64,000 nucleotides of DNA from Akkermansiaceae bacterium (GCA_023299815.1 JALZWA010000034.1:137-64136); one strand, 5' to 3'; shown: positions 12,787 to 23,609, counted from the first letter of the stretch. Notes: generated from the sequence alone by a model not told the origin. Made by a program: numbers and translations.

Positions 12787-14835
12787 TTAGCGCTTCGTGG
12801 ACCAGCGGCGGAGGATGTCGAGGAACTCGGCGCGCTCTCCTTTTACATCATCCCCTTTTCCGCTGAGGGCGAGTTGGGTGACGAGTTCGGGGGTTCCTGC
12901 TCCGGCGTGCTTTGAGTCGCGCAGGAGCATCCCCCAGAGGCTGACTGAGGAGGCGAAGCGGAAGTCCTCGCTCGCTTCCTGCCACTTGCCGTTTTGATCG
13001 GTAAGGGGCTGGCTGATCTCGGTGGAGACTTGCCCATCCGGCTGCTTATAGCGGAGCTTTACGGTGAGGAGTTCGGGCGAGTCGGTGAGCTTCACCTTAG
13101 GCACGACGGGCGCTTCTTGCTGCTGGTATTTGAGACCGGCAGGAATGGCGGGCTTCTCGGCTCCGACAGGGACGATTTCATAAAGCGCCGTGACGCGGTG
13201 GCCTGCGCCGATGTCTCCGGCATCGATCTTATCATTAGCGAAGTCTTCATCGCGCAAGCGGCGGTTCGCGTAGCCGATGAGGCGGTATTGCGCGACCTTG
13301 CTGGGGTTGAACTCGACTTGGATTTTGACGTCCTTGGCGATGGTCTGGATGGTTCCAGTGAGGCCGCTTTGGAAGACCTTCTGGCCCTCACGAAGGGAGT
13401 CGAGGTAGTAGTAATTCCCATCGCCCTTGTTGGTGAGATTTTCGAGAAGGGCGTCATTGAGATTCCCCTGTCCAAAGCCGAGCACGGTGAGCGAAATGTT
13501 GCCGTCAGCTTGCTTTTTCACAAGCTGAAGGAGGGCGTCGTGACTGGTGGGGCCGACATTGAAATCGCCATCAGTCGCGAGGATCACGCGGTTCACTCCT
13601 TCTTTAATAAAGGCCTTGCGAGCAAGCTCGTAAGCGGTGGTGATGCCAGCCGACCCGTGGGTGCCTCCCCCAGCGGAGAGGCTCTTGAGCGCCTTGTTAA
13701 CCTGAGCGCGGCCACCAGCATCGATGGCGGTGGGATCAAGAAGAACGGCCTGACGACCGGCGTAGACGACGAGGCTGACGCGGTCATCTTCATTCAACTC
13801 TTCGAGGAGGAGCTGGAAGGACTGCACAAGGAGCGGGAGCTTGTCAGCATTGCTCATCGAGCCGGAGACATCGATGAGGAAGACGAGGTTCGCGGCCTTG
13901 CGCTCGCCTTGGTTGACGGACTTTCCTTGGAGGCCAATTTTGACGAGGCGGTGATTTTCATTCCACGGACAAGAGGCGACCTCGTTCTGGACGGCGAAGG
14001 GATGCGCTCCCTCCGGCTGCGGGTAGGAGTAGTCGAAGTAGTTGATCATTTCCTCAATGCGGACGGCATTGGGATTGATCGCCTGATTGTTCTGAACGTG
14101 ACGGCGGATGTTCGTGTAGGACGCGGTATCGACATCGGTCGAGAAGGTGGAAAGCGGCGCGGTGAGAGGCGAGAGGAAGCCGGTCTCAATGAGCGGTCCG
14201 TATTTCTCGGTGGTGGGAGCTTCTTGAATACGACGACCGAAGATGGAACCTCGGCTGCCGGGAGCTGCTACAGCGTCTGTTCCGAAGTCTTTTGACCTCG
14301 TGTCCATTGCTGGACTCCTGCGCACGGATTTCGCGGGCATGGGGGCGGACTTCGCTAATGGTTGAGGCGAGATAGGACTAGGCTTGGGGGGGACACGTGC
14401 GCTTTCCGCAGGAGACACAGACACACTAGTGGGAGGTCGCTCAGCGGAGGCAATCACGTTAGCCACCGAAGAAGACGGGGCTGCTGGTTTTTTTGCGCCT
14501 TGATGAGAGTTTATTTTCTCTTCGATCTCACGCATTTCATCCGGAGTCAGCGCTGGCTCTTCCATAGAAAGAATCGCAATGTCATCGCTCGATCCTTTCT
14601 TCATTTTCTCGCTGAGGAAAAAAATTCCCACGGCAGTTCCCGTGACAAGGAAAAGGGCCGCGATGGCGGAAAAGGCGGGGCGTCTTTTGCGCGCTCCTTT
14701 TTCAAGCGACTCCTCGTTTTTGACGGGATGCTGGTCGAGGGATTCTTCGAGTTGGTCGAGGAAGGCTTGGTCGTCTTTTGCTTCGAGACGGGCGTGTTCC
14801 TTGAGGGCTTGGTCGATGAAGTAGTCGTCGTTCAT
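12787..14835 (-). CDS. Anti-sigma-factor-like membrane protein with extracytoplasmic von Willebrand factor A domain (YfbK-like VWA plus C-terminal extension)
   Basis: Short cytoplasmic N-terminus, one TM helix (AFSAIAALFLVTGTAVGIFFL), a Pro/Ser-rich linker, and the MIDAS motif LVFLIDVSGSMS. Located 5 nt downstream of an ECF sigma gene. Confidence 0.7.
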   Translation of the reverse strand: MNDDYFIDQALKEHARLEAKDDQAFLDQLEESLDQHPVKNEESLEKGARKRRPAFSAIAALFLVTGTAVGIFFLSEKMKKGSSDDIAILSMEEPALTPDEMREIEEKINSHQGAKKPAAPSSSVANVIASAERPPTSVSVSPAESARVPPKPSPISPQPLAKSAPMPAKSVRRSPAMDTRSKDFGTDAVAAPGSRGSIFGRRIQEAPTTEKYGPLIETGFLSPLTAPLSTFSTDVDTASYTNIRRHVQNNQAINPNAVRIEEMINYFDYSYPQPEGAHPFAVQNEVASCPWNENHRLVKIGLQGKSVNQGERKAANLVFLIDVSGSMSNADKLPLLVQSFQLLLEELNEDDRVSLVVYAGRQAVLLDPTAIDAGGRAQVNKALKSLSAGGGTHGSAGITTAYELARKAFIKEGVNRVILATDGDFNVGPTSHDALLQLVKKQADGNISLTVLGFGQGNLNDALLENLTNKGDGNYYYLDSLREGQKVFQSGLTGTIQTIAKDVKIQVEFNPSKVAQYRLIGYANRRLRDEDFANDKIDAGDIGAGHRVTALYEIVPVGAEKPAIPAGLKYQQQEAPVVPKVKLTDSPELLTVKLRYKQPDGQVSTEISQPLTDQNGKWQEASEDFRFASSVSLWGMLLRDSKHAGAGTPELVTQLALSGKGDDVKGERAEFLDILRRWSTKR

Positions 14836-14840
14836 GGGTC

Positions 14841-15410
14841 TTAGGCGTGGGAAGTTTTAGAAGTGAGGCAGATCTTGAGGGCGGCGCGGCCGCGCTGGAG
14901 ACGCTTACGAGTGGCGGGCTCTGAGGCATTGAGTTGCTCGGCAGCTTCGGCAGTGGAGAGATCTTGGTAATAATGGGCGAGAATGGGACCGAGGAGAGTC
15001 TCGGGGAGTTTATCGAGGCAGTCTTTGAGCTCATCGAAGAAGCCGGACTGGGGCAGTTCTTTGATCGTGTCCTCGAGCTTGGAGAGCGCTTCATCATCCC
15101 ATGAGCTGAGGCGGGAATTTTTCCGGCAGTGCTCACGCCATTTATTCCGGATGATGCCACGGAGCCAGGAGCCGAAGTCTCGGGTGACATCGAACTTCGA
15201 CCAGTTCTGCCAAGCTAGGAGGAAGGCATCCTGAGAAAGGTCACGAGCAGTGTGCTCCTCTCCGGCAAGGGTGCGGGCATAGAGAAGCGCCATGCGATGG
15301 TGCTCACGGGCGAGCGCCGAGAAGGTCTGGCGAGGTGTGGGTTCAGAGGTGTCTGGCATTGCGAGAGAGTTCACAGAGGGTATTGACTCTAAGGACGCGG
15401 ATTGTGACAT
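14841..15410 (-). CDS. ECF-family RNA polymerase sigma-70 factor
   Basis: Region 2 (DLSQDAFLLAWQNWSKFD...FGSWLRGIIRNKW) and region 4 (DLSTAEAAEQLNASEPATRKRLQRGRAAL). Start set at Met25; Met42 (15359) and the track start (15482) are alternatives. Confidence 0.8.
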   Translation of the reverse strand: MSQSASLESIPSVNSLAMPDTSEPTPRQTFSALAREHHRMALLYARTLAGEEHTARDLSQDAFLLAWQNWSKFDVTRDFGSWLRGIIRNKWREHCRKNSRLSSWDDEALSKLEDTIKELPQSGFFDELKDCLDKLPETLLGPILAHYYQDLSTAEAAEQLNASEPATRKRLQRGRAALKICLTSKTSHA

Positions 15411-15593
15411 CGATCTTGGATTTTTTTCAAACTGAACCCGAATCAGTTCGAAAAGGAGTCGTGCCGCCGCTTCAGACAACAAGCGGAGAAAGCTGGACTT
15501 TGCTAACTTGGTTGCGGGGCGTGGTTAGATTAGCGGCGAGGTGTCACAACTCCTTTCTCATCTTCCTCGAAGTGCGCTCGGCACTTTGAAGGC

Positions 15594-15630
15594 AAAAGAA
15601 AAGGCCCGCCGCAGATGCGACGGGCCTTTT
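15594..15630 (-). terminator. Rho-independent terminator downstream of the two-UGA gene
   Basis: On the minus strand, AAAAGGCCCG-TCGCATCTGCGG-CGGGCCTTTT is followed by CTTTT; it is usable in both directions. Confidence 0.7.
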
Positions 15631-15656
15631 CGGATTAAACTTTGTTCTAGCTGAGC

Positions 15657-16220
15657 TTAGAGTGGGAGAGAGCCCATTTTACTGGAATCCTTCACTTCAA
15701 ACTTCGCACGCTTGAGAACTTTCTCGATGGCTTCCTTATCGTACTCATCTTCGCTACCGAGGAGAACCTCGACGCTGCTGGATGAAACGAAGGCAAAGCT
15801 AACACCATCAATCTTGCTAAGAGCGACACGCGCTCTTTCATTGGTGGTTGCTCATCCGCCGCCTTTTCCGACGAACTGATATCCAGCCGTTGGCTTGGCA
15901 TATTCGTCTTTGCTCATCTTCTCAAGCTTGAGACCTGCTTCCTTGAAGGCCTTACGGACATCAGATTTAGTCAGGTCTTCGCTCTCCCCATTAGGGATGA
16001 CGATGGCATTCGTTCCAGAGACGAGAACTTTCTCGACGCCTTCCATTTTTGTCAAAGCCGCACGGGCTTTGCCGGTAGCACCTCACCCACCGCCACTAAA
16101 GGCGACTGAGTAAGCAGCGATCTTGTCTGCAGCAACAGCTTCGACAGGATCTGCCGCGAATGCGACAGAGCTGACGGAACCGAAAGCGCAGACCATTCCG
16201 AAGAGGATAGTTGCTTTCAT
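15657..16220 (-). CDS. Secreted tandem HMA-like (beta-alpha-beta-beta-alpha-beta) protein with two in-frame UGA codons: candidate selenoprotein (187 codons)
   Basis: There is one continuous frame from ATG 16220 to TAA 15657, broken only by TGA at 16083-16085 and 15852-15854 (complement). Translation: MKATILFGMVCAFGSVSSVAFA|ADPVEAVAADKIAAYSVAFSGGG-U-GATGKARAALTKMEGVEKVLVSGTNAIVIPNGESEDLTKSDVRKAFKEAGLKLEKMSKDEYAKPTAGYQFVGKGGG-U-ATTNERARVALSKIDGVSFAFVSSSSVEVLLGSEDEYDKEAIEKVLKRAKFEVKDSSKMGSLPL*. Both UGAs fall at the same position of the two repeats (GGG-U-xxT...AR.AL.K..GV). Confidence 0.7.
15819..15837 (-). promoter_or_regulatory. Candidate bacterial SECIS-like hairpin 2
   Basis: mRNA AAGAGCG-CGUGU-CGCUCUU (7-bp stem, 5-nt loop containing GU), starting 14 nt 3' of the second UGA. 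Confidence 0.55.
16053..16071 (-). promoter_or_regulatory. Candidate bacterial SECIS-like hairpin 1
   Basis: mRNA CAAAGCC-CGUGC-GGCUUUG (7-bp stem, 5-nt loop containing GU), starting 11 nt 3' of the first UGA. Confidence 0.55.
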
Positions 16221-16370
16221 AACGGGGTGACGATATGGCAAGTGTTTCGATCTGCAAGACAACTTTTCAAATTCACATTCATTTATAATACTACATAAGC
16301 ATCTTTAAATAAGTAAATTGAAGGGATTAGGGGGAGATGTGGAATAAAAATTCGCCTAAACCTCACGGGA

Positions 16371-21919: not shown

Positions 21920-22738
21920 ATGAAAGTGGTTACCATTCTCTTCTTTCTCAGCCTCGTCTGCCTCGCAAAAGAAGCCGCACCTGTCGAAAAAAAGACCGAT
22001 TTCCTGCGCGTCGAGCACAGTGAAAAAATCGCCAAACTCCAGACCGCAGTCACCATTTACGAAAAAGACGGCGCCAAGGTCTCCCTCATCGGAGCCGTCC
22101 ACATCGCTGATCAATCCTACTACGACGCCCTTAACAAAAAATTCGCCACCTACGACCGCCTCCTTTTCGAGATGATCGGCGGCGAGCGCATGGGCGAGAT
22201 CCAGAAGCAGGGCGAAAAGCCCAGTTTCCTCGGCAAGACCTACGCCGCCGTCGCCGGCTTCCTCAAACTCGCCGACCAAAAAAAGGCCATCGACTACTCC
22301 GCAAAAAACTTCATCCACGCCGACCTCTCGCTCACCGAATTCAAAACCCTCCAAGAAAAACGCGACGAATCGCTCCTCAGCTTCGCCTTCAATGCCGGCC
22401 AAACTCCAAAGAAGAATAAAAAACAACCCAACTCCTTCAAACTCCTCACCGCAATGCTCACCGGAGACGCTGACAAACTGAAGCTAGAGCTCATCGAAGC
22501 CTTAGCCGATGGCGACGACCAAATCGGCGCCTTCGCAGGCGATTCCGTCATCATCACCGACCGCAATACCAAGTGCCTCCAAGTCCTCGACGCCCAACTC
22601 AAGGCAGGCCACAAAAACCTCGGCATCTTCTACGGCGCCGCCCATTTCCCCGACATGGAAAAAACCCTCAAAGAAAGAGGCTTCACCATCGGAAAGCAAG
22701 AGTGGCTCGACGCCTGGACCGTCAAGAAGGACGACTAA
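21920..22738 (+). CDS. TraB/GumN-family protein, secreted
   Basis: Signal peptide. GAVHIADQSYYDALN and FYGAAHFPDMEKTLKERGF resemble TraB/GumN motifs. Confidence 0.55.
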   Translation: MKVVTILFFLSLVCLAKEAAPVEKKTDFLRVEHSEKIAKLQTAVTIYEKDGAKVSLIGAVHIADQSYYDALNKKFATYDRLLFEMIGGERMGEIQKQGEKPSFLGKTYAAVAGFLKLADQKKAIDYSAKNFIHADLSLTEFKTLQEKRDESLLSFAFNAGQTPKKNKKQPNSFKLLTAMLTGDADKLKLELIEALADGDDQIGAFAGDSVIITDRNTKCLQVLDAQLKAGHKNLGIFYGAAHFPDMEKTLKERGFTIGKQEWLDAWTVKKDD

Positions 22739-23609
22739 AATGATCCCAGCCCCCGCTCAGATTATCGCCCTCATTCTCCGTCAGCGTTCCAATCCGCGTC
22801 AGCGTTGGAAATGATGCCGCCCACTCACTTTCCAGCTTCTTAGCCGAGCGATCTGAGATCGTAAAAAGAAGCTCATAATCCTCCCCATCCGCCAGCGCTG
22901 CCCCCACCGAACAGCCCCGCGTCCGCGGAATCGCCTCCCGCTCGATCTCAAACCCGCAGCCACTGAGCTTCGCCAGCCTTGGCAGATCCTTCGCCAGCCC
23001 ATCAGAGAGATCCATCATCGCGCGCACTCGAAAATTCTCCGTCAGCCAAGCCGCTTCCTCAAGACGCGGCGTAAAAGACAGATGCTTCCCCTTGATCGAT
23101 CCTCCTAGAAATCCCGTCACAAAAATCGCATCTCCCGGCCTTCCCCCATCTCTTGTCACCAGCTGTCGAGCCGTCACCGCCCCCCGTGCCGCCACCGAGA
23201 TCATGATCGGCGCCCCCGCCGGAAGCGACGTCGTCTCGCCTCCCACGATCACCCCGCCATGCTCCGCCAAGCACGCGCTCATCCCCTCATAAAGTGACCT
23301 CACCCAGCGCAGCGGCGTCTCCTTCGGCAGCGCCAGCGTCACCAGAAACTCCCCCGGCCGACCGCCCATCGCCGCAAAATCACTCAACACCCGCGCCACC
23401 GCCTTCCAGCCCACCTTCTTCGCAGGAGCCTTCGGCAAAAAATGAACCCCCTCCACCACCGCATCCGTCTTCAGCAGAATCAGAGACCGTCCCTCCCGCA
23501 CCACTGCACAATCATCCCCCGGCCCCACCACCACATTCTTGGCAAGCGCCAAGCCCTCACAAAGCTGCGCCACCAGCGGATCCTCACCCAACTCACCCAC
23601 CGTCTTCAT
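22722..23609 (-). CDS. thiL: Thiamine-monophosphate kinase
   Basis: AIR-synthase-like fold with GPGDDCAVV, LLKTDAVVEGVHF and GGETT motifs, and a typical length. Confidence 0.85.
   Translation of the reverse strand: MKTVGELGEDPLVAQLCEGLALAKNVVVGPGDDCAVVREGRSLILLKTDAVVEGVHFLPKAPAKKVGWKAVARVLSDFAAMGGRPGEFLVTLALPKETPLRWVRSLYEGMSACLAEHGGVIVGGETTSLPAGAPIMISVAARGAVTARQLVTRDGGRPGDAIFVTGFLGGSIKGKHLSFTPRLEEAAWLTENFRVRAMMDLSDGLAKDLPRLAKLSGCGFEIEREAIPRTRGCSVGAALADGEDYELLFTISDRSAKKLESEWAASFPTLTRIGTLTENEGDNLSGGWDHFSRPS

Follow-up and report, generated by a model that had tools for sequence, protein, structure and literature searches.

A probably exported two-domain HMA-like protein of Akkermansiaceae with a predicted selenocysteine in each domain

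HMA-type proteins that contain selenocysteine (Sec, written U in motifs) have already been described, and the examples include the UxxU_metal_bind family NF041115, a UxxC cation ATPase, and a MerT/CopZ fusion (PMC2398784, PMC13188914). The hallmark of the bacterial Sec insertion sequence (SECIS) is an apical loop of small size that contains a conserved G and lies just 3′ of the UGA codon (PMC1088965), and the screens that are based on Sec/Cys pairs require at least two Cys homologues for each TGA (PMC1088965, PMC12013277). The gene discussed here is related to these systems and is distinct from all of them. It occurs on the minus strand of a stretch of 64,000 nucleotides from an Akkermansiaceae bacterium (GCA_023299815.1 JALZWA010000034.1:137-64136), called the window in the following, and its frame is interrupted by two TGA codons. 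There is a good probability that it encodes an exported, two-domain HMA-like selenoprotein, with one SECIS-decoded Sec in each domain; the two selenolates may be paired for a soft metal.

The frame runs from the ATG at 16220 to the TAA at 15659-15657, and the two TGA codons are its sole interruptions: the first is found in the context SGGG-U-GATGKARAAL (site 1) and the second in the context KGGG-U-ATTNERARVAL (site 2). The conceptual product starts with a signal-peptide-like N-terminus and continues as ...SGGG-U-GATGKARAALTKMEGV..., ...KGGG-U-ATTNERARVALSKIDGV.... An earlier sequence-only reading of the window had described this frame, and when the minus strand was read again the two TGAs, their coordinates, and their contexts were as written there. 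The features of the locus are collected in Table 1. In the standard list of open reading frames (ORFs) of the window the gene is present in pieces only, at 16083..16262, 15852..16055, and 15692..15901.

Are these pieces all that there is? Standard ORF finding delivers only fragments, of which the databases contain many, and these would fit a pseudogene, an error of sequencing or assembly, or three small ORFs that are independent of each other. Against an error, or a pseudogene, four other assemblies, made from two samples (ENA ERZ23499647 and ERZ23499574; Logan SRR17046543 and SRR17046542), contain the 564-nt gene with its TGAs in identical form, and the TGAs, being reproduced in independent assemblies, are not sequencing errors. 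In addition, 25 related genes with the same architecture and 28-79% identity were examined. Site 1 is TGA in all 25, and site 2 is TGA in 24; the remaining gene, L007 (protein P0019), has UGA at site 1 and the Cys codon TGT at site 2. This Cys is the only sense codon seen at either site, and TGG never occurs. The sequence-only reading had argued that two stops at the same position of a duplicated domain were hardly the result of chance or decay, and their conservation in 25 genes is indeed far beyond chance.

Selection leads to the same point. The dN values (nonsynonymous divergence) of six orthologue pairs, calculated according to Nei-Gojobori, are 0.05-0.28 versus dS values (synonymous divergence) of 0.67-2.1, the latter partly saturated in some of the pairs, and this holds for each of the three segments. 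Purifying selection is therefore at work before, between, and after the UGAs, from which it follows that translation passes both of them; the orthologues do continue past the first TGA, and they are conserved 3′ of both. Together with a modelled fold that spans the UGAs as one coherent two-domain structure (see below), these data leave practically no probability for a pseudogene, an error, or three small ORFs.

The family came into view only by an exhaustive protein search and by scans at the DNA level. A word-indexed protein search returned a single homologue (P0001, 47% identity), whose two "Trp" residues correspond to TGA codons at the DNA level. A DNA-level scan of the GTDB species representatives yielded four more genes (45-78% identity), all with both TGAs, hosted by metagenome-assembled genomes (MAGs) of Akkermansiaceae and Verrucomicrobiaceae. 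A pattern scan of metagenomes, for which a 7-member clade was used, the 20-member alignment being too divergent, added 18 further loci with TGA at both sites. The exhaustive HMMER search, made on 1.84 billion representatives, returned 45 proteins, of which some 15 cover the full length and show "W" at the two sites, and about 25 are fragments ending just before a UGA site, as one would expect from a gene caller that stops at TGA. The DNA was checked for two of the "W" proteins (L006 and the related HMA protein L008, described below), and TGA was found at those positions. No Cys/Cys form of the family occurs among the 1.84 billion representatives. In the 20-member alignment, the residues that are invariant family-wide are G45-U46, S68-G69, P110 in the linker, R131, and L134, with U123 near-invariant.

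A side observation regards how these proteins are deposited. Among the public copies P0001-P0046, those from short contigs of the Joint Genome Institute and Logan were called with code 4, and their Sec codons are recorded as Trp; in longer contigs, the family gene is split into fragments of ∼45, 57, and 67 residues.

Another question is whether UGA is a stop at all in this organism. A code in which UGA means Trp (code 4) does exist in Verrucomicrobiota, being known from two ciliate endosymbionts, Candidatus Organicella and Candidatus Pinguicoccus (PMC13462651), and gene callers picked code 4 for several short contigs; Gly (code 25) would be the other choice. In the window, however, TGA terminates 18 of the 47 long ORFs, and under code 11 these ORFs cover 87% of the sequence, with a GC content of about 54% and normal gene lengths. 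UGA is an ordinary stop in the window, and the code is not reassigned. The placement of the two UGAs at one homologous position, instead of a scatter over Trp or Gly sites, also speaks against reassignment, as does the finding that a scan for TGA-interrupted ORFs detected no other gene of the window that needs UGA to be read through. Accordingly, a reassigned code deserves hardly any credence.

How, then, are the two UGAs decoded? A hairpin is present downstream of all 49 UGA sites examined. Its stem mostly has 7 bp, begins 11-14 nt downstream of the UGA, and carries a 5-nt loop. In the window gene, counted from the U of the UGA, the loop begins at 21 nt for UGA 1 and at 24 nt for UGA 2, and the two covariance-model matches extend over 16050-16074 (33.4 bits) and 15816-15840 (29.6 bits). 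When the 35 distinct hairpin sequences are compared, the G at loop position 2 (G12) is invariant and 93.9% of the cells pair, versus 25-54% after a shift of the 3′ partners by 1-3 columns. Both sides change in six of the seven stem pairs (52 cells), and the covariation score is 0.614 versus 0.248 ± 0.025 in shuffles, none of the 500 shuffles reaching 0.614. Many of the compensations are doubly synonymous, e.g., from Lys AAA...Ala GCU to AAG...GCC, or from Ala GCC...Val GUG to GCU...GUA, and a constraint on the protein cannot account for them.

With their small loop, conserved G, and closeness to the UGA, these hairpins fit the published hallmark of bacterial SECIS elements (PMC1088965). They are encoded by the first-helix codons of K-A-R-(A/V)-A-L, where the Arg codon CGU and the following G are part of the loop. 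Because the hairpin sits in these codons, both the peptide and its synonymous sites are constrained. The AR.AL motif pointed out in the sequence-only reading is thus present, although as a protein motif it mostly reflects the SECIS hairpin. The rules of bSECISearch reportedly ask for 16-37 nt to the loop and for a G among the first two loop bases, and the hairpins comply. A search of Rfam, at gathering thresholds and at permissive ones, gave no matching model and only terminator look-alikes. Conserved, covarying SECIS-like hairpins accordingly follow both UGAs, in keeping with the candidate double-Sec protein that had been suggested. As for L007, whose gene is at L007:3095-3679 (+), the hairpin downstream of its Cys codon is kept (AAGGUC-CGUGU-GGCUUU), which suggests a recent Sec-to-Cys change or a protein-level constraint on the same codons.

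The same type of hairpin recurs in two other genes. The first is on L004, an Akkermansiaceae MAG contig that also has an orthologue of the family: a SelW/Rdx ORF (L004:570-875 (-); PF10262, 64 bits; TIGR02174, 57 bits versus a cutoff of 34), with sequence …VEIEYCEQ-U-NYRPEA…GGIFEI…GHFPE and a UGA at the CxxU position (L004:755-753). Table-11 ORFs of at least 60 aa are absent from this stretch, and at +24 the UGA is followed by a hairpin with a 7-bp stem, AGCUGAC-CGUGU-GUCAGCU. The second is L008 (L008:95-877 (+), Logan SRR20820740; P0026), an exported protein with three HMA repeats and an in-frame UGA in each. Its motifs are GMT-U-GGSC, GMT-U-GAGC, and GMT-U-GSC, i.e., UxxxC/UxxC rather than UxxU; it passes the NF041115 model (113 bits versus a cutoff of 95), NF045683 is also among its profile matches, and the database copy has Trp at the three sites. 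On its sequence, L008 is a candidate triple-Sec protein. Hairpins with a CGUGN loop follow its three UGAs at the same relative place as in the family, and the comparison of the family with the HMA repeats of L008 by hhalign gives a probability of 97.8% and an E-value of 1e-12. In a scan for TGA-interrupted ORFs with a CxxU/UxxC signature, only the SelW-like ORF and L008 emerged, the rest being off-frame and noise-like; no second selenoprotein candidate was found in the window by scans for TGA-interrupted ORFs and hairpins.

These data bear on a further possibility: the UGAs are read through without Sec, and the hairpins boost near-cognate suppression (by Trp, Cys, or Arg) or slow termination. 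In its favor, neither the window nor ∼250 kb of related loci shows any Sec machinery, and the public gene calls translate the UGA codons as Trp. The latter, however, is an artefact of code 4 on short contigs, since the DNA has TGA and never TGG, and the one Cys is the only sense codon among the members. The hairpin itself has the features of a bacterial SECIS, namely the small apical loop and the conserved G (PMC1088965), and it recurs behind the UGA of the SelW-like gene in the same lineage; moreover, the position is that of a Cys with a catalytic or metal-binding role. Read-through of this kind is therefore improbable, and both UGAs are very likely decoded by SECIS/SelB-dependent insertion of Sec.

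Table 1. Coordinates of the gene and of its elements, counted from the first nucleotide of the window
Feature	Position	Strand	Description
Complete coding sequence	15657..16220	(-)	187 sense codons + TAA; two in-frame UGA codons, predicted to be read as selenocysteine
UGA 1, codon 46	16083..16085	(-)	predicted selenocysteine, motif S-G-G-G-U-G-A
UGA 2, codon 123	15852..15854	(-)	predicted selenocysteine, motif K-G-G-G-U-A-T-T
SECIS-like hairpin 1	16053..16071	(-)	7-bp stem CAAAGCC/GGCUUUG, loop CGUGC
SECIS-like hairpin 2	15819..15837	(-)	7-bp stem AAGAGCG/CGCUCUU, loop CGUGU
Predicted Sec-pathway signal peptide	16155..16220	(-)	MKATILFGMVCAFGSVSSVAFA then ADP; cleavage site by eye
HMA-like domain 1	15897..16124	(-)	residues ~33-108, beta-alpha-beta-beta-alpha-beta, Sec46 on beta1-alpha1 loop
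HMA-like domain 2	15678..15887	(-)	residues ~112-181, Sec123 on beta1-alpha1 loop
Intrinsic terminator closing the monocistronic unit	15598..15631	(-)	15-pair stem, 10 G-C pairs, then T run

With regard to the protein, each member of the family has at its N-terminus a basic residue, followed by hydrophobic residues and by a site of the AxA type; in two of them a lipobox takes the place of this site, LASC in P0010 and VTSC in P0020. From these N-termini, the protein is predicted to be extracytoplasmic: periplasmic, and lipid-anchored in some relatives. Two details of the sequence can be added. The hydrophobic core of the signal peptide (16220-16155) is unusually conserved in clade 1 (L001-L005), where it reads FGM[VL]CAFG with a Cys that is outside a lipobox, and the C-terminus of the window protein and of L001-L005 has a conserved K-x4-(L)P(L/F).

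The fold was predicted with AlphaFold from two alignments, one of 2 sequences (predicted local distance difference test, pLDDT, 69.6) and one of 15 (pLDDT 81.7, predicted template-modelling score, pTM, 0.66), and both models have two beta-alpha-beta-beta-alpha-beta units; residues 1-15 are below pLDDT 50. The modelled strands (E) and helices (H) are E33-43, H48-57, E62-68, E71-76, H85-94, and E97-108 in domain 1, and E112-120, H125-135, E140-145, E149-154, H162-171, and E174-181 in domain 2. The tandem HMA domains of CopA and ATP7B are the best Foldseek matches in PDB, and single HMA domains give template-modelling (TM) scores of 0.73-0.75. CopA is also the best PDB match of the family profile in hmmsearch (E 3.5e-6), and in an ungapped profile alignment with B. 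subtilis CopA the U of domain 2 coincides with the first Cys of GMTCAAC and U+3 with the second. A signal peptide followed by two HMA-like repeats, with the UGA at the beta1/alpha1 junction and in the place of the first Cys of GMxCxxC, had been proposed from the sequence, together with a comparison to HMA/ferredoxin-like folds; the models and the profile alignment agree with it in the fold and in the placement of the UGAs.

The motif is another matter. It is not GMxCxxC: the family has GxG-U-x-x-(T/S/A...), and the second Cys is missing in most members, while three of them (P0004, P0011, and P0018) have a Cys at U+4 of domain 2. At site 1, U+3 is Thr only in the window protein, the other members having Ala, Val, Leu, Lys, or Ser there; at site 2, most members, though not all, have Thr or Ser. 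The UxxT motif of the sequence-only reading thus survives at site 2, as Thr/Ser in most members, but at site 1 it is not a motif of the family. Only 2 of 20 family members match PF00403 at E ≤ 0.01, and membership in HMA, MerP, CopZ, or NF041115 by their curated cutoffs was rejected, the scores being below threshold.

What could such a protein do? The mature exported form would have about 165 residues, arranged in two tandem HMA-like ferredoxin-fold domains. The hairpin of each UGA would act as a bacterial SECIS and recruit SelB with Sec-tRNA(Sec), so that the ribosome would insert Sec and not terminate. The two selenolates, one per domain, would probably act as a pair and, in the periplasm, form a site in which both selenolates hold a soft metal ion such as Cu(I) or Hg(II). 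The metal could be bound, buffered, or handed over, and the two domains would jointly replace the CxxC of a single HMA domain. This function is tentative, with a chance that may fall a little short of even. It is preferred because the family is homologous to HMA metal binders and metal-binding selenoproteins and because the second ligand within the domain has been lost.

Alternatively, the protein may be a selenoprotein with a redox role, either through a reversible diselenide between the domains or with each Sec working singly as a selenol of peroxidatic or resolving type (UxxT/S-type, GPx-/OsmC-like). Most bacterial selenoproteins are redox proteins (PMC13188914), the predicted export would bring the protein into the oxidizing periplasm, most members are devoid of the second metal ligand of the HMA motif, and the Thr/Ser at U+3 of domain 2 recalls the UxxT motifs. 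However, UxxT/S is absent from domain 1, and P0004, P0011, and P0018 have their Cys at U+4 of domain 2, like the UxxxC of L008. The fold and the homology point to metal-binding HMA proteins and NF041115, and not to oxidoreductases of thioredoxin fold or OsmC type; nor was a redox partner gene linked to the family found in the window and at the orthologue loci. On balance, a redox role is the less likely of the two, without being negligible.

A bolder idea embraces both chemistries: the interdomain site would consist of two Sec and no sulfur ligand, and would close as a bis-selenolate clamp or as a reversible diselenide, a new type of active site. We regard it as rather doubtful. If it were true, the Sec pair might be an ultra-high-affinity trap or relay for periplasmic Cu(I)/Hg(II), or a carrier of reactive Se/S species, and the near-total lack of Cys forms would mean a chemistry that is impossible with sulfur. 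As a separate observation, the Gly-rich loop K/H-G-(A/G)-G-U-A-C-K in SelD selenoproteins of the Global Ocean Sampling (GOS) data (PMC2398784) resembles the GGG-U-(G/A) of the family. The likeness between GxG(U/C)xxK, the selenium-binding loop of SelD, and the family loop may be a coincidence or a common way to present a reactive selenol.

Returning to the exported two-Sec protein with paired soft-metal selenolates, some findings weigh against it. First, selA, selB, selD, and tRNA-Sec were found neither in the window nor in the related loci; tblastn with E. coli SelA, SelB, and SelD gave only a match to a GTPase domain and one to ThiL. The sequence-only reading had already reported the lack of selA, selB, selC, and selD in the window, which indeed contains no tRNA and, as its only ORF of the AIRS family, ThiL. 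The genes selA, selB, selC, and selD are normally unlinked to those of selenoproteins. As any Sec machinery is to be sought beyond the window and the related loci, we strongly infer Sec at the two sites and do not claim a demonstration. Second, the Cys homologues that would align with the UGAs number one at site 2 (L007) and none at site 1, and within the family the classical Sec/Cys pairing is thus weakly represented. Third, the folding energy of the single hairpin regions is unexceptional with respect to shuffles (z = -0.18 and -1.44), and for this reason the case for SECIS rests on conservation and covariation. Fourth, PF00403 scores 20 bits with U taken as C and 17 with U as X, below its threshold of 24.8. 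Finally, neither the window nor the orthologue loci offer a metal-handling hint in the gene neighborhood.

The ThiL gene deserves a word of caution. This AIRS-family ORF at 22722-23609 (-) has a weak tblastn match to SelD and in a quick screen could be mistaken for selD; it was rejected as such, since it is a thiamine-phosphate kinase (TIGR01379, 219 bits versus a cutoff of 184).

As for the setting of the gene, the strong terminator mentioned in the sequence-only reading was found as a 15-bp stem with a T run, and the pair of neighbors it had named is also present: an extracytoplasmic function (ECF) sigma factor at 14841-15482 and a VWA/YfbK protein at 12787-14835. The neighbors of the gene in the window are this sigma factor, the VWA protein, DUF5362, and DUF1287. 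Along 12787-15482 (-), the ECF sigma gene (Sigma70_r2/r4_2) is directly upstream of the one for the 682-aa VWA/vWF_A/YfbK_C protein, probably within one operon. This pair, which lies downstream of the selenoprotein gene, adjoins it nowhere but in the window and in the closest relative, L002; a RidA/YjgF gene recurs near the orthologues within one clade only, and the other neighbors of the orthologues are unrelated. A conserved gene neighborhood was thus considered and rejected. Because the neighbors differ between orthologues, the gene context gives no clue to the function.

Is the family new? No model of Pfam or of NCBIfam release 20 covers it, and it is not among the 119 selenoprotein families tabulated in 2026 (PMC13188914). 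By text search, Verrucomicrobiota are not named in the selenoproteome literature of PMC13188914, PMC12013277, and PMC13326102. The selenoprotein called "MerP" in the GOS data was considered as a member and rejected, being a different and unrelated sequence (PMC2398784), and the motifs of the family are absent from the GOS supplementary sequences that were searched (PMC2398784). Sec/Cys-pair screens would miss the family because its Cys forms are almost absent. The most likely interpretation is a family of selenoproteins in marine Verrucomicrobia that is missing from the catalogues and whose genes are regularly cut short or mistranslated by gene callers.

For the bacterial selenoproteome, this adds a well-supported two-Sec member. 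Its almost obligate dependence on Sec is rare and marks a concrete blind spot of current selenoprotein discovery. It also exposes a database artefact, i.e., fragments of 45 to 67 residues or full-length "Trp" proteins called with code 4, and searching for G-W-[GAS] in small exported proteins could reveal more hidden selenoproteins. The compact covarying hairpin, common to a recognized HMA selenoprotein and a SelW-like gene, is usable as a lineage-specific SECIS model. An HMA pair with one selenolate per domain is a new design, open to testing, by which soft-metal or redox chemistry could be done in the periplasm.

It remains to place the family among the known systems. One comparison is with the SelW-like/Rdx proteins (PF10262, TIGR02174), which are small selenoproteins, occur in the same lineage (L004), and share the SECIS style; however, their fold is thioredoxin-like and unrelated, their redox motif is CxxU, and they have only one Sec. 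MerP, CopZ, and the HMA domains of Cu(I) P-type ATPases (PF00403) have the same beta-alpha-beta-beta-alpha-beta fold and the ligand at the start of helix 1, and MerP is periplasmic, as the window protein is predicted to be. Unlike the classical HMA domains, the family has Sec for Cys, and lacks the second Cys and the Met of GMxCxxC. The window protein scores 25.3 bits with the MerP model TIGR02052, against a cutoff of 92.55, and no mer operon is present; the family as a whole has no mer or cop operon context, in contrast to the MerP/CopZ/CopA systems.

In the known UxxC HMA selenoproteins, as in the family, Sec takes the place of the first Cys in the HMA motif (PMC2398784, PMC13188914), but these are membrane transporters or fusions that keep the UxxC pair, whereas the family proteins are small, soluble, and, by prediction, exported. 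A further close system is NF041115. It shares with the family the HMA-like ferredoxin fold, the Sec on the beta1-alpha1 metal-binding loop, and, as seen in L008, both the SECIS hairpin in the first helix with its CGUGN loop on the Arg codon and the existence of an exported form with several Sec and several domains. Nevertheless, the window protein scores only 22.6 and 16.7 bits with this model (cutoff 95) and has neither UxxU nor UxxC: its motif is GGG-U instead of GMT-U, it lacks a second Sec or Cys, so that each domain has one chalcogen, and in domain 1 the loop from U to the helix is one residue shorter. Judged by their sequences, the members of the family are distinct from the known HMA selenoproteins in their GGG-U motif, their single Sec per domain, their near lack of Cys forms, and their fixed tandem architecture of two domains, in which both the Pro of the linker and the C-terminal end are conserved.

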